This document shows positions 7,453 to 63,817 of a DNA stretch of 64,000 nt, piece after piece; the first letter of the stretch is position 1; every line of letters begins with the position of its first letter. The stretch is from Candidatus Saccharimonadota bacterium (lineage in GTDB: Bacteria > Patescibacteriota > Saccharimonadia > Saccharimonadales > UBA10212), in the NCBI GenBank assembly GCA_016187125.1, contig JACPKF010000001.1, positions 102,931 through 166,930 on the forward strand. The letters run 5' to 3'. A model generated the notes under the pieces. The model made no database searches. It worked only from the letters and a program-made list of their open reading frames with translations, and had not been told where the DNA came from. The position numbers and the translations under genes were made by a program.

Positions 7453-7540
7453 GGCTTCGCCTTATGAGACAAAACCAGATGGTTTTTTCTCATCGCGCCG
7501 GGTGCGGAATAAATCCGACACTCGGGCTGCTCTTTTTCCT
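7453..7540 (+). repeat. Modular intergenic element R1, copy 1, in the clpC leader and antisense to clpC
   Basis: GCTTCGCCTTATGAGACA, hairpin (gagacaaaacc/ggttttttctc), ATCGCGCCGG, hairpin (gtgcgga ataaa tccgacac), TCGGGCTGC, then a T-rich tail. The 40-nt core is 38/40 identical to 16374-16413. Confidence 0.75.
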
Positions 7541-12219: not shown

Positions 12220-12561
12220 CTACTCCAGTTCAACAAGCTCGATATTGTCGTAGTTCAGACCAGAAACTTCGGCGCCTAATATCCGGCAGTCACCACTCCA
12301 GTTATTGTTTTGGCACCAAACCCGAACGGCAAATTTTATTTGATTGAGCTTGCGAGGCGTGATGTGTTCAAGACCGCTGCCCTGCTCGGTTCCGGTTCGG
12401 TATTTTACCTCGACAAAGTAAATAATGTCGTCTTTGCGGACCACGACATCAATCTCGCAGACCTTAGTTTTCCAATTTTGGGCTAGAATTTTATAAGCGT
12501 TTTGAGCCAAATACCTTGCAACTGCAGCTTCTGCACTTTGACCAATTGCGGTAGTTTTCAT
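12220..12561 (-). CDS. yraN: YraN-family (UPF0102) endonuclease-like protein
   Basis: GQSAEAAVARYL..CEIDVVVRKDDIIYFVEVKYR pattern. Start set to the ATG at 12561 (MKTTAIGQ). The ORF-track extension to 12576 (GSNG) is encoded by the terminal repeat of the adjacent element. Confidence 0.85.
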   Translation of the reverse strand: MKTTAIGQSAEAAVARYLAQNAYKILAQNWKTKVCEIDVVVRKDDIIYFVEVKYRTGTEQGSGLEHITPRKLNQIKFAVRVWCQNNNWSGDCRILGAEVSGLNYDNIELVELE

Positions 12562-12666
12562 CCCGTTAGAACCCACTTACCTTCCAGCCCTTGGCAAACT
12601 ATTGAACACCTGTTTTTTACTTCAACGTACAAATTATTTCCGTAGGTCTTCTGGGTTCTAACGGGA
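12561..12666. mobile_element. MITE-like palindromic element, copy A (long form)
   Basis: Perfect 14-bp TIRs TCCCGTTAGAACCC (12561-12574) and GGGTTCTAACGGGA (12653-12666). Flanking direct TTCA (12557-12560 and 12667-12670). Lies exactly between the rnhB stop and the yraN start. Confidence 0.75.
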
Positions 12667-12667
12667 T

Positions 12668-13225
12668 TCATGCCGTAGTTCTCAACGGTTTAAAACTTAG
12701 ACGATGGATAGCCGCTAAAGGCCCAAAATGCTGCAAGGCTAGCTTATGCTGAGGAGTACAGTAGCCAGCGTGATTTTCGAAGCCGTAATTAGCATATTTT
12801 TTAGCCAACTCAGTCATAAAATGGTCGCGTCTGACTTTGGCATAAATCGAGGCCGCGGAGACTAGCGGCAGAAGGGCGTCGGCATCAATCAGACATTCAA
12901 AATTTTTATAAATTTTAGAAAGATAGTTTACCGGTCCATCAATAATAATTTTTTCATGACGCTTAACACCAAGATTACGCAGCGCCCGGGCAACACCTAG
13001 TTGCATGGCGCCTGTTAATCCCTGCTGATCTATTTCAGCTGCCAAAACCCAGCCTTCGCCAAACTTACATTGCCTAACCAGTAGTTTAAATAAACTTTCC
13101 CGCTGGGCGCGAGTCAACAATTTAGAATCCTTGACATTTTTGGGCAAACTACCATTCTGCCGAACGGCCGCAACCAGTAATGGTCCGGCGATACAGCCCC
13201 TACCGACTTCGTCTATCCCAATCAT
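12668..13225 (-). CDS. rnhB: Ribonuclease HII
   Basis: MIGIDEVGRGCIAGPL (DEVGRG catalytic motif) and conserved C-terminal RHS-like region. Stop is the TGA at 12668-12670. Confidence 0.93.
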   Translation of the reverse strand: MIGIDEVGRGCIAGPLLVAAVRQNGSLPKNVKDSKLLTRAQRESLFKLLVRQCKFGEGWVLAAEIDQQGLTGAMQLGVARALRNLGVKRHEKIIIDGPVNYLSKIYKNFECLIDADALLPLVSAASIYAKVRRDHFMTELAKKYANYGFENHAGYCTPQHKLALQHFGPLAAIHRLSFKPLRTTA

Positions 13226-16355: not shown

Positions 16356-16442
16356 GACACCCCTTCGGGGTTTCCTATCGCGCCGGGTGCGGAATAAATC
16401 CGACACTCGGGCTACCTTCCCGAGGATAGACAAAACACTTAT
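16356..16442 (+). repeat. Modular intergenic element R1, copy 2, bracketed by a 12-bp direct repeat
   Basis: GACACCCCTTCGGGGT hairpin, ATCGCGCCGG, gtgcggaataaatccgacac hairpin, TCGGGCTAC. GGCGCCTTATAA occurs at 16344-16355 (including the spoU stop) and again at 16443-16454. Confidence 0.8.
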
Positions 16443-21074: not shown

Positions 21075-21128
21075 GAACTCCTATTATACGACTAGACTAT
21101 CTTCAGTCTTCATTATATAATTCACAAC

Positions 21129-21156
21129 ATTCTGATATTCTTAAGAATATCAGAAT
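21129..21156. promoter_or_regulatory. 28-bp perfect palindrome between the ytxH-like gene and dnaE
   Basis: ATTCTGATATTCTTAAGAATATCAGAAT. Its core TTCTTAAGAA is shared with the palindromes flanking the ArsR gene. Lies 55 bp upstream of the dnaE start. Confidence 0.4.
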
Positions 21157-21204
21157 AAGCAAGTAATAATAGACCTCTCTAAGATCTGAGCTTTTAGGAC
21201 TTAC

Positions 21205-23603: not shown

Positions 23604-23741
23604 ACACGCCTCCAATTAACAATTTACAGTTTTCAATTTTCAATAATTTATCATTGATCAATTTACAATTTTTCGAACAATGGATAATGGAAAATGGAAA
23701 ATTAATGGTAAATGGTAAATGGTAAATGGTAAATGACTCCT
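23604..23741. repeat. AT-rich heptamer-periodic imperfect hairpin spacer inside the gat operon
   Basis: (aatggta/aatggaa) repeats, e.g. aatggataatggaaaatggaaaattaatggtaaatggtaaatggtaaatggtaaatg, face a partly complementary arm cagttttcaattttcaataatttatcattg. Confidence 0.7.
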
Positions 23742-25576: not shown

Positions 25577-25863
25577 AGGACTCGCCCCACCTTAAATTGG
25601 TTTTTTTCAACTGCCGGCGCGCCTTTGAGCAGATCGGCTGGCTTGGCCTGGTAGTCCTTGGTCTTATCCTCGCGCATAACATTTTTTAAGCCAGTGACTT
25701 GATAAGTCGGTTCTAGACCTTTAGTGTCAGCTTTGTCAAGCTGCTTGACGTAATCCAAGATCTCTGCCAGCTCGGTCCGAAAGCTTTCGATTTCTGCCTC
25801 GGTTAATTTCAGCCGGCTTAAGTGCGCCAATTTAAGTACGGCGTCGCGAGTCAATTTACCCAT
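25573..25863 (-). CDS. gatC: Asp/Glu-tRNA amidotransferase subunit C
   Basis: LTRDAVLKLAHLSRLKLTEAEIESF (GatC). Start set at the ATG at 25863 (MGKLTRD). The ORF-track extension to 25884 lies in the adjacent element. Confidence 0.88.
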   Translation of the reverse strand: MGKLTRDAVLKLAHLSRLKLTEAEIESFRTELAEILDYVKQLDKADTKGLEPTYQVTGLKNVMREDKTKDYQAKPADLLKGAPAVEKNQFKVGRVL

Positions 25864-25937
25864 CCCGATAGAAGTCCAATTCACTACCAGTAAATTGGCA
25901 GGTTTTATCTTTGATAAAAAACTTACTTCTAACGGGA
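25863..25937. mobile_element. MITE-like palindromic element, copy D (short form)
   Basis: Minus strand: ATGAA|TCCCGTTAGAAGTAAG ... GGACTTCTATCGGGA|TGGG. Termini match copy C (TCCCGTTAGAGGTAAG ... GGACTTCTAGCGGGA). The terminal A is the first base of the gatC ATG. Confidence 0.65.
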
Positions 25938-28646: not shown

Positions 28647-28774
28647 GGGAGTTTGCGTGGGTGAAATTTTGCGGACAAGCCATTTTGGTTATGCTTTTTC
28701 ATAAACCTAGATATAGGCTTAAGCAAATAGGAACACAAGCGCTCCAAAGATTAACCTCCCCTTTCTTGTTCCGG

Positions 28775-28788
28775 TGTTCTTAAGAACA
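28775..28788. promoter_or_regulatory. Candidate operator palindrome upstream of the ArsR-family gene
   Basis: TGTTCTTAAGAACA followed by TAAGAATA. GTTCTTAAGAACAT(A/T)AGAATA recurs at 29085-29105, at the 3' end of the same gene. Confidence 0.5.
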
Positions 28789-28830
28789 TAAGAATATGTG
28801 GTAAAATTATAGATATTTAGCCTGGGAGAT

Positions 28831-29106
28831 TTGATAGTGTTAAGTTTTCGTCAGTTGGAAAAACATGTGAAGGGCTTTGCTAATCACCGCCGTATTCAAA
28901 TCATGGTATTGCTGAGCGCGGAGCCTGGACTGTCTTTGCTGGACATAGCCGAGAAACTAAAAATCAATTTTAAAACCGCAGGCGACCATACCCGGCGCCT
29001 ACATCATGCCGGTTTGATTACTAAAAAACATCGTTCAGCCGCTGTAGCTCATGAAGTCAGTCATCGAGGCAAAGTTGTTCTGAAGTTCTTAAGAACATTA
29101 GAATAG
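28831..29106 (+). CDS. ArsR/SmtB-family winged-helix transcriptional regulator
   Basis: FANHRRIQIMVLLSAEPGLSLLDIAEKLKINFKTAGDHTRRLHHAGLI (HTH_5-like). 91 aa. Confidence 0.8.
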   Translation: MIVLSFRQLEKHVKGFANHRRIQIMVLLSAEPGLSLLDIAEKLKINFKTAGDHTRRLHHAGLITKKHRSAAVAHEVSHRGKVVLKFLRTLE

Positions 29107-29133
29107 TGTGAAACTGTAGTTATTCGCCAAGTG

Positions 29134-31777: not shown

Positions 31778-31880
31778 ACTTCTTACGGCTATTTTAGCAT
31801 AAGCTCAGTAGTGAGCCCGCCTTGGGTGGATCTACTACTGAGAAAAATCTCTTTCAATCTAAAATCCTAATGGATCTTAA

Positions 31881-31988
31881 TTTTACCCCACTTTTGGTCC
31901 GAGCCTACTTCGCCGTAGTAGGCTACGATCTATTCTCCGTAGTACTACGAAGGACGAAAGGCTGAATCGGACCAAATGTGGGGTAAAA
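31881..31988 (+). repeat. Element R2 copy 1, nested in a 22-bp inverted repeat
   Basis: ttttaccccacttttggtccga (31881-31902) and tcggaccaaatgtggggtaaaa (31967-31988) flank GCCTACTTCGCCGTAGTAGGCTACGATCTATTCTCCGTAGTACTACGAAGGACGAAAGGC. That core recurs at 41941-42006. Confidence 0.75.
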
Positions 31989-32079
31989 AGATAAGTCAGT
32001 ATCATTTAGCTAGATAAAAGAAGTTGCGGCCTTCGATCGCCACTAACTACCAGGCTTTGACTACGTTCTTCCAATAGGC

Positions 32080-37326: not shown

Positions 37327-37531
37327 GGAAAAGACAGCCCGAGCAGCGGATTTATTCCGCCCGTTCGACCCTTTCGACAGATGCTCAGGGTCGTCCTGTC
37401 TTCGACTCCGAGGTCGCTCAGACTCGAGGAGAGGATAGTCTAAGGACAACATGTTCAGGGCGGCCTGAGCAGCAGTCGAAGGCCGTGCCGGATCAGATGA
37501 GAAAAACTCAGTTTGTCTCATAAGCGAAGCG
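37327..37531 (-). repeat. Modular intergenic element R1, copy 3, carrying an extra insert of about 130 bp
   Basis: Minus strand: GCGCTTCGCTTATGAGACA, hairpin (gagacaaact/agtttttctc), a 130-bp ttcgac/gctcag-rich segment, GCGGAATAAATCCGC, TGCTCGGGCTGTCTTTTCC. Starts at the gap stop codon. Confidence 0.7.
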
Positions 37532-40037: not shown

Positions 40038-40097
40038 CTATTTTCTAGTTACTAATTCCTAATTTATAGCCATATTGTACACTAAGAACTGGATGAA

Positions 40098-40202
40098 TCC
40101 CGTTAGACTCCACTTAACCTTTTGTTGCTGGTTAACGATTGATAAACAGTTTAGGTTTCAGTCGTCCTATAATTTCCGTGGGCGTTTTGGAGTCTAACGG
40201 GA
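40098..40202. mobile_element. MITE-like palindromic element, copy B (long form)
   Basis: TGAA|TCCCGTTAGACTCC (40098-40111) ... GGAGTCTAACGGGA (40189-40202)|TGAA. Interior ends resemble copy A (acttaacc..., ...tttccgtgggcgtttt). Confidence 0.75.
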
Positions 40203-40897
40203 TGAAGATTATCGCCCATCGTGGAGCTAGAGGCATCCTAACCGAAAACAGCTTGCCCGCTTTAAAATTCGCGGCCGATTTACCAATTGACGCGATTGAG
40301 TTTGATGTGCGCGTTAGTCAAGATAAAAAGCTTGTCATTTGTCATAACCAGAATCTAAAGAATGTTTACGGCCTTGACAAAAACATTGGCCAGCTGACGC
40401 TTGAGGAGCTACAAAAGATAAAATCGCCGTCCGGCGAAACAATTCTAACTTTGGAGCAAGTGATGGAATTTGATTTTGGCAAAACCCTGGTGCTCGACAT
40501 TAAGCAGCAGAACACTGCCGATCTAGTGCATGAAACTTTGCAATCCATCAAGGTAAAGAACGCTTGGTCGGTGACTTCGCTGTTTCCTGCCAATCTGGTT
40601 CGTTTAAAACAGCTTTACCCCAAACTGGACACCAATTTACAAACATATAAACGTCCCCTCAAGACAATCCGCAAAGCCCAAGAAATAGGAGCTACTTCGG
40701 TGACACTTGTGCTGTATTTATTAAACCCTTTGACTTACTGGTGGGCCCGGCGAGCCGGACTTAAAGTTTGGACTTACCAAAACTATTTGTCTTTCTTATT
40801 AACTTGGCGCTGGCTGGCTAGACTACTTTTTGTACTTTATCCGTCACTTACTATTGTCACTGATCGACCGGATAAAATAGCTTCGCTAAAAAAATAA
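40202..40897 (+). CDS. Glycerophosphodiester phosphodiesterase (GDPD family)
   Basis: MKIIAHRGARG..ENSLPALKFA..IEFDVRVSQDKKLVICHN. Start set to the ATG at 40202. The ORF-track start at 40139 lies inside the element. Confidence 0.85.
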   Translation: MKIIAHRGARGILTENSLPALKFAADLPIDAIEFDVRVSQDKKLVICHNQNLKNVYGLDKNIGQLTLEELQKIKSPSGETILTLEQVMEFDFGKTLVLDIKQQNTADLVHETLQSIKVKNAWSVTSLFPANLVRLKQLYPKLDTNLQTYKRPLKTIRKAQEIGATSVTLVLYLLNPLTYWWARRAGLKVWTYQNYLSFLLTWRWLARLLFVLYPSLTIVTDRPDKIASLKK

Positions 40898-41904: not shown

Positions 41905-41940
41905 TTACTATTTCCCAATTCACAATTATTAACCATTGTA

Positions 41941-42006
41941 GCCTACTCCGCCGTAGTAGCCTACGGCTACGATCCATTCTCCGTAGTACTACGAAGGACG
42001 AAAGGC
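41941..42006 (+). repeat. Element R2, copy 2
   Basis: GCCTACTCCGCCGTAGTAGCCTACGGCTACGATCCATTCTCCGTAGTACTACGAAGGACGAAAGGC. About 90% identical to 31903-31962 with a 6-nt indel. Confidence 0.75.
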
Positions 42007-42338: not shown

Positions 42339-42615
42339 TCGAGGGTTCCTTTTTGTTAATTTTTCTTGATCTGGACTAATGATATATGGTGCCGGCAGTA
42401 AAAGCAATAGCACTACATATTGTGGTTTTTGCACCAAATATACACACCGCCCGCCTTCTGTCCCCGCCGTGGCGTGGCCATGCGGCGGGCTCTTGGCACG
42501 CTGCAGCGTTGCTTAGCTACGGTACGTCCTCACCGTATTGAGTATACGGCTGCGGGCGTTCCTCGCTAGCGCCTTGCATCGCACCCAAGTGTGAACATTT
42601 GGTTGCCAAAAAATT

Positions 42616-43140
42616 TTACTTTACGTCCAATAAGATGATGTCGAACACCAAGTCAGCATTAGCCGGAATGCCCGAGCCTGGCGGCGGATTAGCTCCATAA
42701 GCCAGGCTAGCCGGAATCAGCAGTCGTCTTTGGCCGTTGACCTTCATTCCTGGAACTCCGTCAGTCCAGCCTTTGATAACTTGGTTGAGTCCAAACGTGG
42801 CTGGTCGCCCGCTATCCAGCGAACTTTCGAAGATTACTCCGGTGGCTGCTACCGCGCCGGTGTACTGCACGGTTACTATCGCGCCCGGCTTAGCTTCTGC
42901 ACCAGAGCCAACTTGTATATCCGTAGCTTGTAGTGAGTCGGCATGCGCTATAGGCGTGAAGCCGCTTAATTGGGTGCCTTTTAACTGCTGCGAGGGCTGA
43001 TTGTCGGTATTAATCACGGATGAGGTCTCCTGCTTTTGATGAGTTGCTTGCCAAAAGGCTACCACGCCGATACCAAGCCCCGTTCCCGCAAACAAAAGAA
43101 CCAAAAATAACCAGCCGGCGCGCCTTAATTTATCTTTCAT
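42616..43140 (-). CDS. FKBP-type peptidyl-prolyl cis-trans isomerase, membrane-anchored
   Basis: N-terminal TM helix. VTVQYTG...FESS...FGLNQVIKGWTDGVPGMKVNGQRRLLIPASLAYG. Confidence 0.9.
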   Translation of the reverse strand: MKDKLRRAGWLFLVLLFAGTGLGIGVVAFWQATHQKQETSSVINTDNQPSQQLKGTQLSGFTPIAHADSLQATDIQVGSGAEAKPGAIVTVQYTGAVAATGVIFESSLDSGRPATFGLNQVIKGWTDGVPGMKVNGQRRLLIPASLAYGANPPPGSGIPANADLVFDIILLDVK

Positions 43141-43228
43141 CCTCGAAATATTATACTCAGAAGTAAACCTTCGTGACTACCCATTAACTGACGGGGTTTT
43201 GCCAAGCACGCCAAGATCTACTTCTGGG

Positions 43229-45757
43229 TCATACTCTTTCCGCCTTAAATTTTACTTTGGCAGCGGCCGCTACCTTATCAAGTAGCGTGTTAACTTCGGC
43301 GGTAGTTAAGGTCCTATCTGGATGAGCGATGACTACGTGCCAGGTTGTTTGTTTGAGCTTTTTATCACCCGGCTTTTGGTAAATATCCAGAGTTCGCAGC
43401 CAGTGTGTATAACCATGTCCCTTAGAAAGATCGCCAAGAGACTTTAGTATAAAATCCGTCAGTTGGCTGTAGCCAAGATTGATACTTGTCCGCAAACATA
43501 AGTCTTGCTCCACGCTTGGGAAGCGGTTCAGTGAATAGTATGTTGGTGGTTGAGTTTGCATCAACAAAGCATTTATATCGATCTCGGCTTGCGCCGTGAA
43601 GCTAGGCAATTTAAGTATTTGTTTCAGAACTTGAGTCGGTTCGCCGACAAGGCCAATAACTTCATCTTTATGGTAGATGATGGCGCTGCGTTTAGGTTCA
43701 TAAGCTTGGGCCGTCACCTTCCATTGTTTATCTAATTTACTGTCTATAGGTTCATAACGAATTTTGTAGATTCCGATCCCATGTAATAGATTCTCTAGCT
43801 GTTTCTTGGCCGCAAAATATGGCGCTCCTTCTTCTTGGTTCGAATAGTTCTTGGTTGCGACCAAAGCCAGTCTATCTAACTCCTTTGGCAGTTTTTCTTC
43901 GTCGAGAACCCCCTTTATGTGGGTCCGGCCAAGTTCAAAAAGCACAAATTTATCAAAACCTTCCTTGACGTTGGTATGAATTTTTTCCAGCAGGCTCGGT
44001 GCCAGACTCAGACGGTAATATTGTAAGTCCGGGCTCAGCGCATTTCTAATATGGTAAGCGTCCTTGGTGTTTTGGCCGGCTTTTTGGATTAGTGAACTAT
44101 CAACAAAACTATAGGTCAGGACCTCGTTGGCTCCAGCCGAAGACAGTATTTGTCTAATTTTATTTTTAAAAACTAGGCTTTGATTTAGTTTTGCCGGGCT
44201 ATGATCCCGAGTTGGCAGCTTTAGTGGCAGATGATCATAGCCGTAGAGTCGGCCGATTTCTTCGACTATATCTTCGGGAATTACAATGTCTGTTCGCCAA
44301 AATGGTGCGATGATTCGCAGAGAGTCATCACTGCCTATTTCAACTTTGAATTCGACATTTTCTAATAGTTGTTTAGTTTGAGTAGCTGAAAGATTGAGTC
44401 CAAGTCGATCATTGATAAAGCCTAGTTTTGTTTTCACCTGAGATGGTGGAGCCAATTTGCTTTTGAGGTCGTAAACACTGCGGGCCGGCAGACCACCGCT
44501 TTCGTGAATCACAAAATCTATTGCCCTGGCCAACACCCGATCGTTCTGCCATGGCGATTGGTTTTTAGTAAAGCGCGTGGCAGCATCTGTAAATAAGCCG
44601 TGGGTCATAGCTGTTTTACGCGTCGCATTCATGTCAAAATTACCGACTTCCAAAATGATATTTTTGGTATTTTCATCGACTTCCGTATCGGCCCCGCCCA
44701 TAACACCACCAAGCCCAAGAACTAGTCTGTCAGTAGCGATAACTACTTCTTGGCCGCCCAGAGTAACTTCTTTGCCGCCTAAGATTTTAAGCTTTTCGCC
44801 CCTTCGAGCCATCCGGACTGTAATCTGGGCTTTGCTAGTAGCGCTCAGAGCTTTTACTTTATCGTAATCATAGGCATGCAGCGGCTGGGCAGTCTCCAGC
44901 ATTAAATAGTTGGTGATATCAACAATGTTGTTGATGGGACGCACAGCAACGCGCGCTAGAGCGGCTTGGATACCCAAGGACGAAGGACCAACTTTGACAT
45001 TCTTGACTATCTGCATCATAAAGCGTGGTACTAACATTGGTACTTGGTTTTTTACACTCAACAGTTGGTTATCTGTTTTATGTGTGCTGATTGTTTTATC
45101 ACCTAAATACCAATTCGGGGAGCGAAAAACCATGCCCTGGATGCCCGCCAGTTCGCGGGCAATGCCAAGCATACCGAAGCAGTCCGGGCGGTGGGTGAAC
45201 ATCTTGTTTTCGATGTCGATGATGTAATCATCAAGCCCGTAGACTTCGGCGAAAGGTTGGCCCGGTTTGGCCGGTTGGTCAATTACCAAAATGCCGGTGT
45301 GATCGTCACCGAGACTCAGTTCTTTCAAACTGGCGATCATACCGTTACTGACTTTGCCACGAATTTCTCTGGCCTCCAGCACCATCGGGTCTTTATCGAT
45401 CGTGACTGGAACTGTCTGACCGGGCGGGATCCAAGCTACCATTTGGCCAGCTTTGACATTCGGAGCTCCACAGACTACCTGTACCAAACCCTTACTGTCG
45501 TGCCTAACTTTTTTTACTACACCACCGTCGTCAATCATACAGACACTTAACTTGTCGGCATTGGGGTGTTTTTCACAACTCACAACCTTAGCCACGACAA
45601 CGCCTCGATATTTTTTTCCGACATCAACAACTTCTTCAACCGCGCCCAACTGGGAGCCAATTTTTTCAACTAAAGCATCAATGCCTTTTGGCATCGGATC
45701 TGCCGAACATTGGTATTTTTTATTTATTTCACGAATCCAGTTAACCGAGACCTTCAT
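43229..45757 (-). CDS. pheT: Phenylalanine--tRNA ligase beta subunit
   Basis: tRNA-binding OB domain (HPNADKLSVC), B3/4 and B5 domains, FDX-ACB C-terminal domain. 842 aa. Confidence 0.95.
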   Translation of the reverse strand: MKVSVNWIREINKKYQCSADPMPKGIDALVEKIGSQLGAVEEVVDVGKKYRGVVVAKVVSCEKHPNADKLSVCMIDDGGVVKKVRHDSKGLVQVVCGAPNVKAGQMVAWIPPGQTVPVTIDKDPMVLEAREIRGKVSNGMIASLKELSLGDDHTGILVIDQPAKPGQPFAEVYGLDDYIIDIENKMFTHRPDCFGMLGIARELAGIQGMVFRSPNWYLGDKTISTHKTDNQLLSVKNQVPMLVPRFMMQIVKNVKVGPSSLGIQAALARVAVRPINNIVDITNYLMLETAQPLHAYDYDKVKALSATSKAQITVRMARRGEKLKILGGKEVTLGGQEVVIATDRLVLGLGGVMGGADTEVDENTKNIILEVGNFDMNATRKTAMTHGLFTDAATRFTKNQSPWQNDRVLARAIDFVIHESGGLPARSVYDLKSKLAPPSQVKTKLGFINDRLGLNLSATQTKQLLENVEFKVEIGSDDSLRIIAPFWRTDIVIPEDIVEEIGRLYGYDHLPLKLPTRDHSPAKLNQSLVFKNKIRQILSSAGANEVLTYSFVDSSLIQKAGQNTKDAYHIRNALSPDLQYYRLSLAPSLLEKIHTNVKEGFDKFVLFELGRTHIKGVLDEEKLPKELDRLALVATKNYSNQEEGAPYFAAKKQLENLLHGIGIYKIRYEPIDSKLDKQWKVTAQAYEPKRSAIIYHKDEVIGLVGEPTQVLKQILKLPSFTAQAEIDINALLMQTQPPTYYSLNRFPSVEQDLCLRTSINLGYSQLTDFILKSLGDLSKGHGYTHWLRTLDIYQKPGDKKLKQTTWHVVIAHPDRTLTTAEVNTLLDKVAAAAKVKFKAERV

Positions 45758-46197
45758 TCTTTGGTCTCCGTATCTCGTATCTGGTATAAGGTATTAGGTA
45801 TATTGTTTTTTGTTTTAGAAGATTTGATCAGTCCATTTATCAGCTTGTTCGTACGTTCAGAGAGAATAAACAGAGTTTCTGATTCTTTTTCATCTATATA
45901 TCCGAGGTCTGATGAAATTTTAAGCTGATTTTGTAGTTCTGTGAGCGAGCCTTGAGCCATAAAGTAGAATTGATTTTTGTTCTCTCGTGTTTTTCTTGAG
46001 AAGCCTTCCGCAAGATTTGAAGTAACAGAAACTGAAGATCTCCGCATCTGACTCACTAGATTATACTGTTCATTTTTAGGAAATTGCTTGGTTAGTTTGT
46101 ATACAACCAGTGCAAGCTCATGGCCAACTTGCCAGGCGATTAAATCCATAAAGGATTTTATTTTCTGGTTCTCTATACCTGATACTTTATACGTCAT
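45754..46197 (-). CDS. Four-helix-bundle protein (23S rRNA IVS protein / Avd-like family)
   Basis: IKSFMDLIAWQVGHELALVVYKLTKQFP ... SQMRRSSVSVTSNLAEGFSR ... FYFMAQGSLTELQNQL..DLGYI. Overlaps the pheS end by 11 nt and the pheT start by 4 nt. Confidence 0.85.
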   Translation of the reverse strand: MTYKVSGIENQKIKSFMDLIAWQVGHELALVVYKLTKQFPKNEQYNLVSQMRRSSVSVTSNLAEGFSRKTRENKNQFYFMAQGSLTELQNQLKISSDLGYIDEKESETLFILSERTNKLINGLIKSSKTKNNIPNTLYQIRDTETKE

Positions 46198-47263
46198 ACC
46201 ATATACCTTCTAAACTGAATTGCCTCAAGAACTTTAGGTTGCCGGAGTGAAAGTGTCTAATGTCTTCGATGCCATACTTCATCATTACCAAGCGTTCAAG
46301 TCCGCAACCCCATGCAAACCCGGTGTATACAATTGGGTCAATGCCGGCCAATTTAAGTACGTTCGGATGGATCATTCCCATACCTAACAGTTCTATCCAA
46401 CCGGTGTAACCACAGACATGGCAACCTTTCTTTTGACAGAATGGGCAGCTTAAAGCTAGCTCAAATGAGGGTTCAGTGAAAGGAAAATAGAAGGGCTGGG
46501 TCTTTATTTCAAGGTCTTGCTGGTAATATTCCTGCAAAAAAGTCTTAAAAGTAGCTAGCAGATTGCCTACATGGATGTCTTTATCGACATAGACCCCTTC
46601 AAACTGGTGGAATGTATGCTCGTGTCGAGCATCCAAATCTTCATTTCGAAAGACTCGCCCAGGCAGTAAAATCGCGATGGGCTTACCATTCTCCAGGTTG
46701 ATCTTAAACTCTTTTAGTACTCGGTTCTGCATAGTCGATGTATGAGCCGGTGCAACTAAATCTTCATCGGTTACAAAAGTATCATAATCATCCCGAGCAG
46801 GATGGTCTTTAGGAAAGTTCAGGGAAGTAAACATGTGCCAATCATCATCAAGCTCTCTTGATTCCACGGCTGTGAAGCCCATGCGATAGAAAATATCTAG
46901 TACAGTTGCTAGTTCGCTCATCAATGGATGCTGACTACCCATATCAGCCGTCAGTAATTTGGGTTTTTGTTCTGGGGGTACATTGATGTCAAAGGGCGCC
47001 GTTATATCAATTGAGCTTAAAGCTTTAGGCTTAAAGCTTTGAGCTTGGCGAACGAGCTGCTCAAGCTTACTTTTAAGTTGATTTACTTCCTTCCCAAAAG
47101 CAGCTCGTTCGCCGGCCGGCAGTGTTTTTATGCGGTCGTAAAGCGCTACCAGTTCCGGCGCTCGCAAAATTGCTCGCTTATCTTCGAGTTTTTTAAGCTT
47201 CTCACTTAGAACTTTAGCAGCCGCTTGCACCTCTTTGTCGACATACGCCATAACTGGACACAA
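46187..47263 (-). CDS. pheS: Phenylalanine--tRNA ligase alpha subunit
   Basis: Class II aaRS motifs (HPARD, FRNEDLDARHEHTFHQFEG, GFAWGCGLERL). The likely start is the ATG at 47251 (MAYVDKE). Confidence 0.95.
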   Translation of the reverse strand: MCPVMAYVDKEVQAAAKVLSEKLKKLEDKRAILRAPELVALYDRIKTLPAGERAAFGKEVNQLKSKLEQLVRQAQSFKPKALSSIDITAPFDINVPPEQKPKLLTADMGSQHPLMSELATVLDIFYRMGFTAVESRELDDDWHMFTSLNFPKDHPARDDYDTFVTDEDLVAPAHTSTMQNRVLKEFKINLENGKPIAILLPGRVFRNEDLDARHEHTFHQFEGVYVDKDIHVGNLLATFKTFLQEYYQQDLEIKTQPFYFPFTEPSFELALSCPFCQKKGCHVCGYTGWIELLGMGMIHPNVLKLAGIDPIVYTGFAWGCGLERLVMMKYGIEDIRHFHSGNLKFLRQFSLEGIWYDV

Positions 47264-47316
47264 TTATAGCAATCAACACCTCTGCTGACCACAGGAGTTG
47301 ATATACTTAAACAGTA

Positions 47317-48711
47317 ATGAATAAAGACCAGCTGTTGCTTAAGGAGGCTCAGAAAGTTTTAAAACAAAACGACCGTGGCGACTGGACGGTGCCGGCCGGC
47401 GATCTTTACCCACACCAGTGGCTTTGGGACAGTTGTTTTATTGCCATCGGGCTGCGTCATTTGGATATACAAAGGGCCCAAACAGAGCTAACTAGCCTGC
47501 TCCGCGGCCAGTGGAGCAACGGCATGCTGCCCAACATTATATTTTCAGATGGCCGCGAATTTCATCGTGACCGAGAGCTTTGGCGCAGCTATGTGAACCC
47601 TTATGCACCAGATAATGTTGCCACTAGCGGAATAACACAGCCGCCAATGCTGGCCGAGGCGGTCCTTCGAGTTGGGGAAAAACTAAAAAATCCACAACGT
47701 CGTAGCTGGTATCAAAGCGTGTTTGTTGAGCTAGTGCGTTACCATGAATGGCTTTACAATGAACGCGATCCCCACAAAGAAGGTTTAATCCTGCTTCTGC
47801 ATCCTTACGAATCGGGTTTAGACAATTCCCCTCCCTGGATAAGCGAGCTACGCAAACATAGCATGCCGTGGTGGGTGGTGGCTGTTGAACGTCTACGTCT
47901 TGACAGCTTTGTTAATTTAGTTAGACACGACACTCGCCATATACCGCCTGGGCAACGAATGAGCAATATTGAGGCTATGGCCTATTGGGCAGCTATAAGA
48001 CGACTCAGGCGCAAAGCTTATAACAGTGAGGCTCTACTGCCGCGCTCACTTTTTGCGGTACAGGACCTAGCCTTTAATTGCATTTTGATCCGAGCAAACA
48101 GCTGTCTTAAAGAGATTTCTCAAATCATCGGCCGAGAATTGCCAGCTGAATTAGTCCAAAAAATAGAGACTACCGAAAAAGCCTTGGAACAGCTTTGGGA
48201 TGATACCACTGGCCAGTACTATAGCCGTAGCTTCGTCAGCCATAAACTGATAGAAGAACCGACTGTGGCAACTTTATTACCACTCTACGCCGGGAAAATT
48301 TCTAAGGCGCGAGCCGAACATTTGGCTGGTTTACTCAAACGCCGTAAGTGGTTTGCAACCAACTGGCCGGTGCCTAGCGTTCCACTGTGTTCGTCATATT
48401 TTGATCCTATCAAATACTGGCAGGGCCCGACTTGGGTTAATACCAATTGGCTTATCATCGAGGGTTTGAAAAACTATGGCTTTGACCAAGAAGCTGCAGC
48501 CTTGCGTCAAAAGACTCTGGATTTGGTCGCTAAAAACGGGATGAATCCCGTTAGAGGTAAGAAATCAGCAATTTCTGCCGACTCGCATATAACGAACCGG
48601 ACTTCTAGCGGGATGAACGAATACTTTAACCCTATTAATGGCCACCCTGTTGGCGCTCCTAATTTCAGCTGGACCGCCGCCCTTACTATCGATCTACTTA
48701 AGCAGCCCTAA
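47317..48711 (+). CDS. GH63-family glycosidase (glucosylglycerate/mannosylglycerate hydrolase-like)
   Basis: LYPHQWLWDSCFIAIGL, GQWSNGMLPNIIF, TSGITQPPM, HPYESGLDNSPPW, YWQGPTWVNTNWL, NEYFNPINGHPVGAPNFSWTAA. From memory this closely parallels mycobacterial GgH. Confidence 0.8.
   Translation: MNKDQLLLKEAQKVLKQNDRGDWTVPAGDLYPHQWLWDSCFIAIGLRHLDIQRAQTELTSLLRGQWSNGMLPNIIFSDGREFHRDRELWRSYVNPYAPDNVATSGITQPPMLAEAVLRVGEKLKNPQRRSWYQSVFVELVRYHEWLYNERDPHKEGLILLLHPYESGLDNSPPWISELRKHSMPWWVVAVERLRLDSFVNLVRHDTRHIPPGQRMSNIEAMAYWAAIRRLRRKAYNSEALLPRSLFAVQDLAFNCILIRANSCLKEISQIIGRELPAELVQKIETTEKALEQLWDDTTGQYYSRSFVSHKLIEEPTVATLLPLYAGKISKARAEHLAGLLKRRKWFATNWPVPSVPLCSSYFDPIKYWQGPTWVNTNWLIIEGLKNYGFDQEAAALRQKTLDLVAKNGMNPVRGKKSAISADSHITNRTSSGMNEYFNPINGHPVGAPNFSWTAALTIDLLKQP
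48546..48613. mobile_element. MITE-like palindromic element, copy C (short form), in frame inside the GH63 CDS
   Basis: TGAA (48542-48545)|TCCCGTTAGAGGTAAG ... GGACTTCTAGCGGGA|TGAA (48614-48617). 68 bp plus a 4-bp duplication gives 72 bp, or 24 codons (PVRGKKSAISADSHITNRTSSGMN). Confidence 0.7.
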
Positions 48712-48728
48712 AAATACTCAATATTGCT

Positions 48729-48768
48729 TTATCCCGTTTTTTGTCCGATCGGACAAAAAACGGGATAA
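48729..48768. terminator. 40-bp perfect palindrome between the convergent GH63 and rmuC genes (bidirectional terminator candidate)
   Basis: TTATCCCGTTTTTTGTCCGA|TCGGACAAAAAACGGGATAA. Confidence 0.55.
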
Positions 48769-48794
48769 TAATGAACCAATACAACTTGGAGTTT

Positions 48795-49874
48795 TTATTC
48801 TTCGTCGAGACTGGGGCGGTCCAGCAGCATCGGTTCGACGCTGGGACTAGTGTTGGCGATTTTTACCACGTCTTTGTCTATTTTGCCCAGTTCTTTGTAG
48901 GTGGTATTAAAATGCCCGACAGTTGTGCCCAAGCTACTGCCAAGCTTTTGCATGTAACCGTTATGGGCGACCAGGTGCCGGCTTAGTTGTTCGATGTTTT
49001 TGCGAATTTTCTCGGTATCTTTATGGATGTCTATGGAGCGCAGGCCCTGGGCAATAATTTGCAACATAGCCGCCAATGTACTGGGACCGACGATGGTAAC
49101 CTTCTTATCCGCCGCCGCGTACTGGATTAAGTTGCGGCCGCTGACACCACCCAGTCCGACTTTATTAGCCAGTAAGTCGTAGTAAATGCCTTCGCTGGGA
49201 ATAAACATCAAGGCTTGGTCCAGCGTGCCCTTGCCTGGCTTAATATATTTGGCGGCCTCGTCGATGCGTTTTTTGAGGTCTTCCTTAAAAGCCCGCTCCA
49301 GCGCCGGCCGGTCTTCCGGCTTGGCTTCCACCAGCCGATTATAGTTTTCCAGGCTAAATTTGCTGTCTATGGGAAGCAGTTTGTCGTCCAGCTTAACAAC
49401 GGCATCTACCACCATCCCATCGCTCAATTTATATTGGAGCTGGAAGGCTCCCGGCGGCAAGACGTTTTTTAGAATTTGCTCGAGATAATATTCCCCCAAA
49501 ACACCCCTTTGTTTGGGATTTTGCAAGACGTTTTGCAGAGATTTTAATTCGGACGCTATATCGCCAACGTTTTTATTAGTTCTATCGAGTTCGGTCAGTT
49601 TTTGGGTGACATCGCGAATAATCTTGGCGCTTTGAGCATACTGGGCGGCCATTTGTTTGTTGCTGCTTCCTAATTGTTCTGTCAGTTTTTTCTGCAGGTT
49701 TTCATTAAGCAAAGTAACATTTTCGCTAATTTGAGTCAGGTCGGCCTTAAGCAGCAGAGCCGAATTACTATCGCCAGGTTTGAGAAGAATTTTCCAAACT
49801 ACCACTCCTAGCAAGGCCACGCATAAAATCCCCAAAATAATAATAGCCGGTAACATAATCGATTTACCTTTCAC
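48795..49874 (-). CDS. rmuC: DNA recombination protein RmuC
   Basis: N-terminal TM helix, long coiled coil, and RmuC nuclease-like domain (LPIDSKFSLENY, MFIPSEGIYY). Confidence 0.88.
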   Translation of the reverse strand: MKGKSIMLPAIIILGILCVALLGVVVWKILLKPGDSNSALLLKADLTQISENVTLLNENLQKKLTEQLGSSNKQMAAQYAQSAKIIRDVTQKLTELDRTNKNVGDIASELKSLQNVLQNPKQRGVLGEYYLEQILKNVLPPGAFQLQYKLSDGMVVDAVVKLDDKLLPIDSKFSLENYNRLVEAKPEDRPALERAFKEDLKKRIDEAAKYIKPGKGTLDQALMFIPSEGIYYDLLANKVGLGGVSGRNLIQYAAADKKVTIVGPSTLAAMLQIIAQGLRSIDIHKDTEKIRKNIEQLSRHLVAHNGYMQKLGSSLGTTVGHFNTTYKELGKIDKDVVKIANTSPSVEPMLLDRPSLDEE

Positions 49875-49887
49875 TTTAACTCATGGA

Positions 49888-49922
49888 CAAAGAAGCGGCG
49901 ATCAACCGCTTCTTTGTTTTTG
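49888..49922 (+). terminator. Stem-loop followed by a T-run
   Basis: ACAAAGAAGCGG cgatcaa CCGCTTCTTTGT TTTT. Canonical on the plus strand only, where no upstream plus-strand gene exists. Lies between the zupT end and the rmuC start. Confidence 0.4.
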
Positions 49923-50136
49923 GAGGGCTTGCCCGTTTCGATAGCTTTGGCGAAAGTACACTTTCTTGAAACAACTATGTGTCTCCTCAGCAACTTCTAC
50001 TTTGAAACAATTTTCCAAGATACCCAGACCTTGATCGCCATATAGTTTTGACGGCCAGTGACTTCATGAAATGCGGTGTACCCGTCAGGTGTACCTATCC
50101 TATTCCACTCTTGGTCCGTCTATATTATACCAAAAA

Positions 50137-54234: not shown

Positions 54235-55338
54235 TTAGGGAACAATTTGTTCCCACGGCAGGCCGGCTTTACCAAAATGGCCATAGGTCGCGGTTTGAAG
54301 ATAGATTGGCCGGCGCAAATCTAGCTTGGCAATGATCCCACTAACCGACAGATCTATTAGACTACTTGCAAAGTCGGCAATCGCTTTGTCGCCTTGCTTG
54401 GCTGTGCCGAAGGTATTAATATCCAGCATCACCGGTTTTTTACCGCCGATATAGTAGGCTAGTCCGACTTCGGCTTGCTCGGCCAGTCCATGGGCCACGA
54501 TGTTTTTAGCTACGAAACGAGCCGCGTAAGCGCCACTGCGATCAACTTTAGAGGCGTCTTTTCCGGAAAAGCAGCCGCCGCCCACCCGCGCATAACCGCC
54601 ATAAGTATCAACGGCGATTTTGCGTCCAGTTAAGCCGGCATCGCTGGTTGGTCCGGGCATGTGCCAAACGCCTGTGCCGTTAAGCACCAATTTATCAGGC
54701 GTAATTTGATAACCGAACTCACCCAGGACCGGCGAGACAATTTTTTTGTAAACATCATCTTTAACCTGCGTCAGTTGAACAGACTCATCGTGAGGTACGG
54801 CGATCGTTAAATGCTCAACACTTACCGGTTGGGAATTTTCATAGCCGACCACCACTTGAGCTTTACCATCCGGTCTCAGATAAGGTAGATTGCCACTTTC
54901 ACGGGCTAGGTCAAGGTTACGAGTTAGGCTGTGGCTAAGCATGATTGGTAGGGGCATTAATTGTTTTGTCTGATTGCAGGCGAAACCGAACATCAATCCT
55001 TGATCGCCTGCCCCCTCGGCATCAACCGCTAGAGCAATCTCCGGAGATTGGTCATGAATATAAACGTCAACCGGAGAAGCGTCACTGAAATTCCAAGCTG
55101 GATTGGTGTATCCCAGCCGACGGATTTGTTCACGGGCAATCCCGGGAAAATCCAGTTGAGCGTTGGTCTTAACCTCTCCAGCCAAAATCAGACGGTTGTG
55201 TGTGGCAATCGTCTCCAGCGCCAGACGCGATACAGGGTCTTGTTTTAAGGCCGCGTCCAAAATAGCGTCGCTAATTTGGTCGCAGATTTTATCTGGATGA
55301 CCGGCGCAGACTGATTCTGAGGCAAAGTAATGATTCAT
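54235..55338 (-). CDS. metK: S-adenosylmethionine synthetase
   Basis: SESVCAGHPDKICDQISDAILD, GAGDQGLMFGFA, GGGCFSGKD, GRKIAVDTYGG. Confidence 0.96.
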   Translation of the reverse strand: MNHYFASESVCAGHPDKICDQISDAILDAALKQDPVSRLALETIATHNRLILAGEVKTNAQLDFPGIAREQIRRLGYTNPAWNFSDASPVDVYIHDQSPEIALAVDAEGAGDQGLMFGFACNQTKQLMPLPIMLSHSLTRNLDLARESGNLPYLRPDGKAQVVVGYENSQPVSVEHLTIAVPHDESVQLTQVKDDVYKKIVSPVLGEFGYQITPDKLVLNGTGVWHMPGPTSDAGLTGRKIAVDTYGGYARVGGGCFSGKDASKVDRSGAYAARFVAKNIVAHGLAEQAEVGLAYYIGGKKPVMLDINTFGTAKQGDKAIADFASSLIDLSVSGIIAKLDLRRPIYLQTATYGHFGKAGLPWEQIVP

Positions 55339-55512
55339 AAATATCTTTCCTTCTGGTTGGAGTTAGCACCTTTCGAGTTAGTAGTTGGTAGTTCGCAGTT
55401 GGTAGTTTGGGTTTTTTTATCTACTAACTACAATCTACAACCTACTAAACGGGGTTGCTGAGCGGTTTCAAACGAGCCAATTCTCTCTCCGCTGCTCTTA
55501 ATATTTAATTGT
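55339..55512 (-). promoter_or_regulatory. SAM-I (S-box) class riboswitch in the metK leader, with expanded P3 and minimal P4
   Basis: Minus strand: AAAUAU UAAGAG C AGCGG AGAGAGAAUUGGCUCGUUUGAAA CCGCU CAGCAACC [P3 hairpin, about 85 nt] GAAAGGUGCUAACUCCAACCAGAAGGAAAG AUAUUU AUG. Matches the S-box core (AAGAG, GAGnGA..GGCnC..UGAAACC, GCAACC, GGUGCUAAnUCC, AAAGAU). P1 pairs AAAUAU with AUAUUU and abuts the start codon. Confidence 0.7.
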
Positions 55513-63649: not shown

Positions 63650-63817
63650 AATGACTACTTCATTCCCCTTCGCCGTTGACTATTCACCATTCACAGCACA
63701 TGAGCTGTTCACCATTCACCATTCACCATTCACATTTAATCCATGGTTAATGGCTAATGGAAAATGTACGGTAAATGGTAAATGGCTAATGGAAAATGGC
63801 TCCGGAGGAGCAATCTA
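63650..63817. repeat. Heptamer-periodic imperfect hairpin spacer between atpH and atpA
   Basis: ttcaccattcaccattcaccattcaca faces atggttaatggctaatggaaaatg...ggtaaatggtaaatggctaatggaaaatgg. Shares aatggaaaatgg and ggtaaatggtaaatgg with the gat spacer. Confidence 0.7.

Follow-up and report, generated by a model that had tools for sequence, protein, structure and literature searches.

How does a glycoside hydrolase gene of a Candidatus Saccharimonadota bacterium come to carry 24 codons that its homologues lack, next to the codon of its predicted catalytic base? The gene lies in what we call the window, the whole stretch of 64,000 nucleotides analyzed here (positions 102,931 to 166,930 of contig JACPKF010000001.1, assembly GCA_016187125.1). 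A preliminary description of it, made from the letters of the DNA, attributed the extra codons to the in-frame insertion of a short palindromic element into a gene of the GH63 family. [quoted passage not shown] The features of the locus are as follows.

47317-48711, plus strand: coding sequence of the GH63 / MGH1-like glycoside hydrolase, 464 amino acids (open reading frame list, Pfam PF22422, PDB matches)
47821-47823, plus strand: Asp169 codon, predicted general acid (equivalent to Asp182 of the Mycolicibacterium hassiacum enzyme), in the motif ESG(L/M)DNSP (PDB alignment; PMC6608630)
48538-48609, plus strand: extra segment, codons 408-431 (GMNPVRGKKSAISADSHITNRTSS), placed by AlphaFold2 and a gap in all homologue alignments
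48542-48545: left TGAA duplication of E4, forming with the preceding A the pentamer ATGAA that covers the Met409 and Asn410 codons
48546-48613, no strand assigned: element copy E4, 68 bp, non-coding, palindromic, with ends TCCCGTTAGAGGT... and ...ACTTCTAGCGGGA
48614-48617: right TGAA duplication of E4, whose TG, preceded by the last A of E4 (48613), rebuilds the ATG of Met433
48619-48621, plus strand: Glu435 codon, predicted general base (equivalent to Glu419 of the M. hassiacum enzyme; PDB alignment; PMC6608630)

Anatomy of the insert

On re-reading the locus, every statement of the preliminary description about its DNA and reading frame proved correct. With the ends of the element marked by a slash, the sequence runs GCT AAA AAC GGG ATG AA/T CCC GTT AGA GGT AAG ... 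ACT TCT AGC GGG A/TG AAC GAA TAC, and the region translates without internal stops as ..VAKNGMNPVRGKKSAISADSHITNRTSSGMNEYFNPINGHPVGAPNFSWTAALTIDLLKQP, up to the stop codon of the gene. The 68 bp of E4 and one copy of TGAA amount to 72 bp, that is 24 codons with zero stops. The peptide encoded by the insert includes PVRGKKSAISADSHITNR, and a site devoid of the element would join as ...GGGATGAA/CGAATAC. The arms of E4 form a 13-bp stem that includes two G.T positions, and its RNA folds as a single long hairpin of -28.6 kcal/mol (z = -4.9). Its right end is substituted, reading TCTAGC instead of TCTAAC.

Position of the insert relative to the catalytic residues

The host protein, annotated as intact by NCBI (MBI2588737.1) on a 397-kb contig of a metagenome-assembled genome (MAG), was matched by the Pfam profile MGH1-like_GH (PF22422) with an E-value of 3.1e-86. 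Its best solved relatives, as found by phmmer against the PDB, were the mannosylglycerate hydrolase (MGH) of Thermus thermophilus (2z07/4wva, 4.5e-77) and the glucosylglycerate hydrolase (GgH) of M. hassiacum (5ohc and related entries), and Foldseek superposed the predicted model on 4wva with a TM-score of 0.88-0.89. The catalytic Asp (acid) and Glu (base) characteristic of the MGH1-like (alpha/alpha)6-barrel group are both present in the host protein. It is thus a GH63 enzyme of the mannosylglycerate/glucosylglycerate hydrolase type, as had been proposed.

In M. hassiacum GgH, Asp182 serves as general acid and Glu419 as general base, and activity is lost in the E419A variant (PMC6608630). Once the PDB SEQRES numbering of GgH was corrected for its offset of +2, Glu419 was found to be the E of AEYYEP and to align with Glu435 of the host protein (GMNEYFNP). 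The Asp169 and Glu435 columns were both invariant in an alignment of 113 sequences. The preliminary description had taken the Glu of this EY(F/Y)xP block to be a catalytic residue, which was borne out, and its estimate of one to two residues between the insert and this Glu was about right: the distance to Glu435 is 0-3 residues, varying with the copy of GMN that is taken as the original one.

Alignment with homologues and structure prediction had been suggested as ways to examine the insert. The phmmer alignments with both solved enzymes split exactly there, residues 10-408 of the query being paired with residues 7-390 of 2z07 and residues 431-458 with residues 389-416, so that some 22-24 residues of the query have no structural counterpart. 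In GgH, helix alpha11 belongs to the outer layer of the barrel and helix alpha12 to the inner one, with the catalytic Glu in the connection between the two. AlphaFold2, supplied with the 113 sequences and with the insert in place, returned an otherwise intact fold (predicted TM-score 0.86) in which residues 408-431, located between a helix (390-405) and two short strands (436-437 and 444-445), had no secondary structure and a predicted local distance difference test score below 50. The second GMN was taken as native in this model, which looped out the extra segment listed above. Judging from the model, the insert probably forms a disordered, hydrophilic loop of 24 residues in the alpha11-alpha12 connection, directly before Glu435.

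Lineage specificity and empty site

A protein search yielded 5,816 homologues, and the spacing between the motifs YWQGP and SWTAA was measured in the best 120 of them; the best-matching homologues carry the names Candidatus Saccharibacteria or Saccharimonadales. This spacing was 60 residues in 119 of the 120, compared to 84 in the window protein, and the remaining homologue is devoid of one of the two motifs. The few homologues of greater length owe it to N-terminal residues only, and the insert is also absent from both solved structures. Thus, the 24-residue indel is lineage-specific, as the preliminary description had supposed. The closest relative (protein P0001, DNA locus L001), which is 87% identical, has the uninterrupted sequence AAG AGC GGC ATG AAC GAA TAC with a single TGAA (empty-site sequence, AGCGGCATGAACGAATAC). 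This relative displays a clean empty site, and the 72 bp represent a recent insertion accompanied by a 4-bp target duplication. The interrupted gene harbors neither a frameshift nor a stop and has kept every family-invariant residue, Asp169 and Glu435 included.

Other copies of the element in the window

The signature of the family, TCCCGTTAGA ... TCTANCGGGA within 120 nucleotides, occurs four times in the 64-kb window and not once in 100 dinucleotide-preserving shuffles of it, confirming that E4 shares a family with other elements of the stretch, as had been claimed. A looser search of the window, allowing two mismatches per end, returned the same four copies and nothing further. The three copies other than E4 are:

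12561-12666: E1, 106 bp, TGAA at 12557-12560 and 12667-12670, read on the minus strand, at the overlap of the rnhB stop and the yraN start
25863-25937: E2, 75 bp, ending on the minus strand with the A of the gatC start codon (25863)
40098-40202: E3, 105 bp, TGAA at 40094-40097 and 40203-40206, base 40202 being the A of the GDPD gene ATG

Each of these copies sits on a start codon, where the last A of the element and the TG that follows make up the ATG of the downstream gene, namely yraN (Pfam UPF0102) for E1, gatC (Pfam GatC) for E2 and the GDPD gene (Pfam GDPD) for E3. At E2, a promoter-like site ends 12 nucleotides upstream of the left ATG. The four copies of the window differ in their interiors, except for a relationship between E1 and E3, which are oppositely oriented relative to their genes, and all four fold as long hairpins with z-scores of about -5. 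The empty site of E1 was found in two relatives (L134 and L135), where the rnhB/yraN junction reads ...CAG TGA AAA CT..., with a GTGA stop/start overlap; the window reads CATGAA/E1/TGAAAACT at this junction. This empty site shows that the duplication consists of nucleotides 2-5 of the open reading frame (ORF).

The left flank of E4 in the GH63 gene, AACGGGATGAA, is identical over 11 nucleotides to the canonical right end of the element followed by the duplication (AACGGGA + TGAA), and the flanks of E3 (AACTGGATGAA) and E1 (TACGGCATGAA) are likewise similar to the element's own end, the resemblance amounting to 6/6 positions for E4 and 5/6 for both E3 and E1. As a general rule, targeting of sites that resemble the element's own end was rejected, as it holds in the window and is weak in other genomes. 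The sensitive position in the GH63 gene was probably hit because the conserved G-M-N codons spell the preferred target, (A)TGAA, after a GGGA-like sequence.

A perfect palindrome of 34 nucleotides, TCCCGTTTTTTGTCCGA/TCGGACAAAAAACGGGA, was also noted at 48732-48765, 20 nucleotides past the GH63 stop, in the interval where the GH63 and rmuC genes converge. The family ends are matched by its outer 7 nucleotides (TCCCGTT...AACGGGA), the sole match of this kind in the window, where 0.01 would be expected; the palindrome may be a minimal element related to the family or else a plain bidirectional terminator.

The element family in other genomes

A scan for the exact pattern, in which each species was represented by one genome, placed the family in at least 120 further loci among the matches listed. 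Patescibacteria from a wide range of classes make up most of the hosts in that list (Saccharibacteria, many Parcubacteria/Paceibacterota lineages, and Doudna-, Kerfeld-, Levyi- and Moranbacteria). The others are seven Omnitrophota, Planctomycetota, among them three Sedimentisphaerales with long contigs, WOR-3, and individual MAGs from a few further phyla. Only eight viral contigs carry the pattern. The statistics given below cover 140 copies of 62-120 bp; 129 loci were fetched, as 8-kb blocks.

All copies have TCCCGTTAGA...TCTAACGGGA as their termini, in the form of a conserved terminal inverted repeat of 10 bp to which a few covarying pairs are added. These 10-nucleotide ends are the same across phyla, and the interiors are unrelated between subfamilies. 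Stem positions 11-13 vary among copies and yet are Watson-Crick paired in 89-95% of them, with all four pair types in use. A perfect 4-bp direct repeat flanks 89 of the 140 copies; oriented by strand, it is TGAA in 47, TGAG in 13, TGGA in 10, TCAA in 6 and TAAA in 4, plus rarer types such as TGCG. An A precedes the left repeat in 87 of 104 copies. The right side stays ATG even where the left side reads GTGAA, from which it follows that the terminal A belongs to the element. Nested and tandem copies (L036 and L096) occur, and several of the fetched loci hold two or three copies. None of the copies carries a transposase gene, their ORFs all being short. Searches of Rfam gave no family for any copy, whether the gathering or the E-value threshold was applied, and no description of the family was found in the searchable literature on the motif, on MITEs at start codons or on palindromic repeats of the candidate phyla radiation (CPR), Patescibacteria or Saccharibacteria, nor in a 2024 review of MITEs.

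One subfamily of ~116 nucleotides, 5' AG(C/T)CGCGG(T/A)C ... G(A/T)CCGCGACCTGCT 3', recurs in many Parcubacteria and Saccharibacteria (L005, L032, L034, L040, L055, L089, L101, L119 and others). By eye, its members all appear to be oriented alike with respect to the gene downstream; they have a 4-nucleotide bulge in the 3' arm, and several harbor an internal mini-ORF, with a Shine-Dalgarno sequence and an ATG, that ends at the terminal TAA.

Association with start codons

The terminal A of the element and the TG that follows open an ORF of at least 60 codons in 105 of the 140 copies. Because the frame upstream of the left ATG closes after a median of 6.5 codons, the occupied sites are gene starts rather than internal Met codons. 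The loci also contained 6,257 ATG(AA/AG/GA) sites free of the element, of which 716 were start-like, 589 intergenic-like and 4,952 within ORFs; should insertion be random among such sites and only non-disruptive copies survive, a start share of at most about 55% would be expected. Copies with an ATGRR duplication are nearly all at starts, by an estimate made from the listing rather than computed.

A Shine-Dalgarno core was present at 8% of the occupied starts compared to 14% of control starts, and a -10-like hexamer was found 6-7 nucleotides upstream at 19 of 74 occupied starts versus 69 of 808 (odds ratio 3.7, p = 3.6e-5). The latter enrichment is suggestive of the geometry of leaderless genes, the comparison being based on crude gene calls and a consensus match. 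That the element supplies a Shine-Dalgarno sequence was considered and rejected as a general explanation, GGAG/GAGG occurring in the 3' arm of 15 copies and in the 5' arm of 12.

About ten start-codon copies (L017 6890-6900, L027, L036 3296-3308, L062 4808-4812, L078 and others) were observed to have no duplication on the left, where they have the sequence A(A/T)AC(T/C)TG in common, often located just past a TATAAT-like box; in L036, this flank sits within a larger nested copy.

Translation compatibility and copies inside other genes

The interior of 44 of the 105 start-codon copies contains no stop when read in the frame of the upstream ATG (ATG AAT CCC GTT AGA...), compared to 14-30 for the other frames and the other strand, and to 18 +/- 3.6 (maximum 31) for shuffled interiors. 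The resulting short ORFs end at a TAA inside the right end of the element (TC TAA CGGG ATG, 4 nucleotides before the ATG of the gene) in 28 cases, at an overlapping ATGA in 12 and by in-frame fusion to the gene in 4. Mini-ORFs ending at the first two of these stops numbered 31 and 25, respectively, on the sense strand, 15 and 10 on the antisense strand, and ~18.5 and ~18.8 in shuffles. Early stops are found in about half of the copies. We infer from these statistics that there may be selection for the passage of ribosomes across the element, or for their relay.

All four copies of the window are open in the frame of the upstream ATG. The E2 ORF terminates 5-7 nucleotides into gatC, and the E1 ORF is bounded by two ATGA overlaps, with the rnhB stop where it starts and with the yraN start where it ends. 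The coordinates of the candidate relay ORF of E1 and of the upstream ORF carried by E3 are:

12671 down to 12558, minus strand: E1 relay ORF, 37 codons
40093-40197: E3 upstream ORF, ending at the TAA inside the right end, 4 nucleotides before the ATG of the GDPD gene

The idea that relay ORFs are specific to leaderless-type sites was unsupported (10/19 versus 27/55), relay status being uncorrelated with the -10 box.

Approximately 5% of the family copies are internal to ORFs. Besides E4, at least five in-frame copies of this kind were found in housekeeping genes, those for RsmH (L006), GatB (L077), UvrC (L081), the leucyl aminopeptidase PepA (L121) and a putative glycosyltransferase-like membrane protein (L043), the last host having been assigned by eye from the sequence. 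All of these copies are 68-74 bp long and stop-free, with (length + 4) mod 3 = 0. They share the frame of E4, encoding ...PVR(S/N/G)...SNG(I/T)... where E4 encodes PVRG...SSG, and Ser, Gly, Pro, Arg, Ala and Thr are abundant in the segments they encode. Alignment of GatB with the solved structure 3h0l left a gap of 23 residues right at NPVRNSPPSGPSGARGAGEISNG, and RsmH behaved likewise when compared to a structure. The preservation of frame and the lack of stops argue that these inserts are translated rather than spliced out or bypassed.

In the explanation that we favor, the family prefers (A)TGRR at the first codons of genes as its target and lands after nucleotide 5 of the ORF, so that nucleotides 2-5 are duplicated and the terminal A of the element rebuilds an ATG. 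The internal AAC GGG ATG AAC (N-G-M-N) of the GH63 gene mimics such a start-codon target and was hit. With 68 + 4 = 72 bp and a stop-free frame (xxT CCC GTT AGA ... TCT AGC GGG A), the GH63 gene stays open and the insert is predicted to be translated. In a more tentative reading, the ORF running from the old ATG at gene starts would terminate at the new one and hand the ribosome on, either by means of the built-in TAA located 4 nucleotides upstream of the new ATG or through the ATGA overlap created by a TGAx duplication, and the stop-free PVR...SNG frame would let short copies persist inside ORFs. This reading as a whole, that the family constitutes an undescribed superfamily of "translation-transparent" mobile hairpins in Patescibacteria, Omnitrophota and some Planctomycetota, homing to first codons, especially those of leaderless genes, relaying ribosomes, and surviving as short copies within ORFs where it would generate protein loops, here beside an active site, is a tentative one to which we assign a somewhat less than even chance.

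Probable mobility of E4 and alternative explanations

A number of points weigh against the view of E4 as a mobile element that inserted into a functional gene. Neither a transposase nor a longer element with the family ends was found in the 129 fetched 8-kb loci (~950 kb, 140 copies) or in the window, where only 11 of ~55 ORFs were scanned against Pfam, so that the mechanism of mobility is deduced from anatomy alone. Similarly, no pair of ends 135-5000 bp apart was found to bound a gene, nested or tandem copies and adjacent elements excepted; solo ends occurred at chance frequency only; and no recurring protein family was detected beside the copies (984 ORFs, 129 loci). Transposition would presumably be effected by an enzyme acting in trans. 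Given that its right end reads TCTAGC and not TCTAAC, E4 itself may have lost mobility already. The source of the window is a MAG. Logan contigs from three runs are identical to it over 42345-47541 and 48739-49963, and no Logan contig crossing the insert or the 3' half of the GH63 gene was retrieved; a scan of JGI metagenomes with the left flank did not find the strain. The ratio of nonsynonymous to synonymous substitution rates (dN/dS) of the GH63 gene relative to L001, 0.063 at a dS of ~1.2, reflects long-term constraint and, being a pairwise long-branch average, is silent on the period that followed insertion. Lastly, an insertion so near the general base could abolish activity, the ORF being intact merely because the event was recent.

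If so, the gene would be a young pseudogene whose frame is open only because the element chanced to be 72 bp long and stop-free. We regard this as somewhat unlikely, and the chances that the enzyme retains activity with the insert as roughly even. The 0-3 residues between the insert and Glu435 speak for a dead enzyme, as do the position of the catalytic Glu in the alpha11-alpha12 connection, the neighboring loops of which move during catalysis in GgH, the inability of a pairwise dN/dS to isolate the post-insertion period, and a proportion of nonsynonymous differences (pN) of 0.16 in the last 60 codons, above the 0.075 of the whole gene. However, the invariant residues are all present in an ORF free of stops and frameshifts, and the duplicated GMN preserves the native residues before the Glu, AlphaFold2 modeling the second GMN-E at normal confidence. 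Moreover, the family is enriched for stop-free frames and is found in frame within the essential GatB, RsmH and UvrC, not all of which can be dead. A different question is that of the mover, which might be a single-strand, hairpin-recognizing enzyme encoded elsewhere (HUH/RAYT-like or otherwise structure-specific) rather than a DDE cut-and-paste transposase, with the repeat as its recognition core. Zero autonomous elements in ~950 kb around 140 copies, identical 10-nucleotide ends in several phyla, compensatory changes that keep the arms complementary as in REPINs, targets that resemble the element's own end in this genome, and the 3.7-fold enrichment at starts with a -10 box 6-7 nucleotides upstream, where promoter DNA melts, would all fit such an enzyme. 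We nonetheless consider it unlikely, as the ends are symmetric, unlike those of IS200/IS605, and show no REP-type GTAG or CGTC head, while the flanking 4-mers vary among copies and match within each (TGAA, TGAG, TGGA, TCAA, TAAA, TGCG), as expected of a true target duplication rather than of a fixed cleavage tetranucleotide.

That the 72 nucleotides are excised from the RNA, or bypassed between the two AUGAA repeats in the manner of T4 gene 60 to yield an insert-free mature enzyme, is very improbable. A stable hairpin between identical AUGAA pentamers does offer matched "take-off" and "landing" sequences, but the first AUGAA is not followed by a stop codon, no Rfam family or ribozyme-like motif was detected, and in-ORF copies all have (length + 4) mod 3 = 0 and are stop-free, neither of which would be needed if they were skipped. 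There is similarly little chance that the insert is an assembly artefact or a chimera of the MAG. The MAG origin of the sequence, and the breaks of the Logan assemblies of three runs at 47541 and 48739 with none retrieved across the insert, could be read in this way; yet the clean 4-bp duplication, the kept frame and the unique interior are at odds with it, the 13-bp arms are far below assembler k-mer lengths, the break at 48739 is explained by the 34-nucleotide palindrome at 48732-48765, and comparable in-frame copies are found in other organisms, assembled independently. Scarcely credible, finally, is an ordinary lineage-specific enzyme loop without any mobile element, which has a hydrophilic, loop-like composition in its favor and nothing else, and which would leave the inverted-repeat family ends and the duplication in the DNA unexplained, together with the precise absence of the insert from an 87%-identical relative and its absence from 119 of 120 homologues.

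Comparison with known systems

Insertion of palindromic elements in frame within ORFs is already known from Rickettsia and occasionally from other MITEs. Rickettsia palindromic elements (RPEs) are short palindromic repeats found in frame in unrelated genes and translated as surface segments, with many copies and no transposase of their own (PMC10969869). The analogy with RPEs drawn in the preliminary description is apt as to the mode of action, since the family described here is also short, palindromic, non-coding and devoid of its own transposase, and is present in frame within unrelated ORFs (E4 and at least five genes). It differs from RPEs in its hosts (Patescibacteria, Omnitrophota and Planctomycetota, the host of E4 being a member of the Saccharibacteria), in its length (62-120 bp compared to ~150 bp), in that its copies share 10-bp ends only whereas RPEs share a conserved encoded peptide, and in its 4-bp duplication and main location at start codons instead of ORF interiors, features on which, rather than on a comparison with RPE sequences, the two are set apart.

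The likeness to MITEs and similar small repeats (Correia/NEMIS, ERIC, RUP, BOX and others) comprises small size, terminal inverted repeats, target duplication, multiple copies, a hairpin transcript and occasional in-frame intragenic copies. In accordance with the definition of MITEs, members of the family are below ~500 bp and without transposase, have inverted-repeat ends and a 4-bp duplication, leave empty sites in relatives (E4 and E1) and occur as dispersed copies; a cognate autonomous insertion sequence (IS) with the same ends was not found in the 129 loci, which were searched as 8-kb blocks only. Features that distinguish the family from known MITEs are the lack of a known parent IS, ends that are identical across phyla around interiors that are unrelated between subfamilies, and the start-codon habit, with an ATG restored by the terminal A, a right-end TAA 4 nucleotides before the ATG, and a TGAx duplication giving rise to an ATGA overlap.

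Hairpin arms kept by compensatory change, and a mobilizing enzyme that would be encoded elsewhere, are reminiscent of repetitive extragenic palindromic (REP) sequences and REPINs, which depend on REP-associated tyrosine transposases (RAYTs). REPs have a GTAG/CGTC head, are extragenic and lack a duplication, whereas the present elements have TCCC ends, start-codon or ORF sites, a 4-bp duplication and empty sites. Membership in the REP/REPIN class was thus rejected in view of the absence of a GTAG/CGTC head, the location of copies on start codons or in ORFs, and the presence of a duplication. IS200/IS605 membership was rejected on account of the symmetric ends and of a 4-mer that is variable among copies and repeated on both sides, and is kept only as a possible class of mechanism. 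Integron attC sites were rejected as well, the required order 5'-RYYYAAC ... GTTRRRY-3' being reversed (GTTAGA on the 5' side, TCTAAC on the 3' side) and the copies lying at gene starts. Bypass elements, such as the gap of T4 gene 60 and the "byp" elements of Magnusiomyces mitochondria, are likewise short hairpin inserts in coding sequences, with identical short flanks, and are thought to be mobile. However, bypass gaps break the frame or hold stops and are skipped, whereas the in-ORF copies described here preserve the frame and are stop-free; programmed bypass or splicing was rejected for E4, whose 72 nucleotides are in frame and stop-free with AAT following the ATG, and for the other in-ORF copies on the same grounds.

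What is apparently new is the family of elements as such, along with how widely it is distributed, its habit of occupying start codons, its seemingly translation-compatible design and its insertion directly beside an experimentally established catalytic residue. The genomes of Patescibacteria are tiny and gene-dense, and are regarded as poor in mobile elements. Siting at start codons with passage or relay of translation would, if true, be a new survival strategy for a selfish element in compact genomes. The preference for start sites, including the enrichment for -10 boxes, may provide a handle on leaderless expression in uncultured lineages. The family is also an annotation problem, in the form of mis-called starts and spurious N-terminal extensions, and a potential source of new protein loops comparable to RPEs. 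The GH63 case amounts to a natural experiment, with 24 residues placed 0-3 positions before the general base of an enzyme whose homologues have been structurally solved.

Other features of the window

ARAGORN found no tRNA gene in the window (1-64000). A 147-residue four-helix-bundle gene (Pfam bAvd / 23S_rRNA_IVP) lies on the minus strand at 45754-46197, between pheS and pheT and overlapping both, an arrangement that is identical in three Logan assemblies. A SAM-I riboswitch-like match at 55338-55507 on the minus strand, directly upstream of the ORF at 54235-55338, covers the full model (1-108) with 39.4 bits compared to the Rfam gathering threshold of 44.4 (E = 2e-5).

The window contains several further repeats. 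A second repeat family of ~43 nucleotides (...GCGGAATAAATCCGACACTCGGGCT), unrelated to that of E4, has copies at 7486-7528, 16371-16413 and 37331-37360, two of them direct (95% identical) and one inverted. The 42-nucleotide sequence GGCTACGATC(T/C)ATTCTCCGTAGTACTACGAAGGACGAAAGGC occurs at 31862-32007 and 41935-42006, 10 kb apart with 98% identity and with inverted-repeat partners nearby; a chance-level match to a microRNA model overlaps one of its copies. A palindromic motif centered on GTTCTTAAGAAC / ATTCTTAAGAAT has three intergenic copies (21121-21163, 28761-28796 and 29075-29112), which may be operator sites. Finally, imperfect heptamer runs, (ATGGTAA/ATGGAAA)n, are found 40 kb apart at 23680-23740 and 63743-63803 and are 84% identical.

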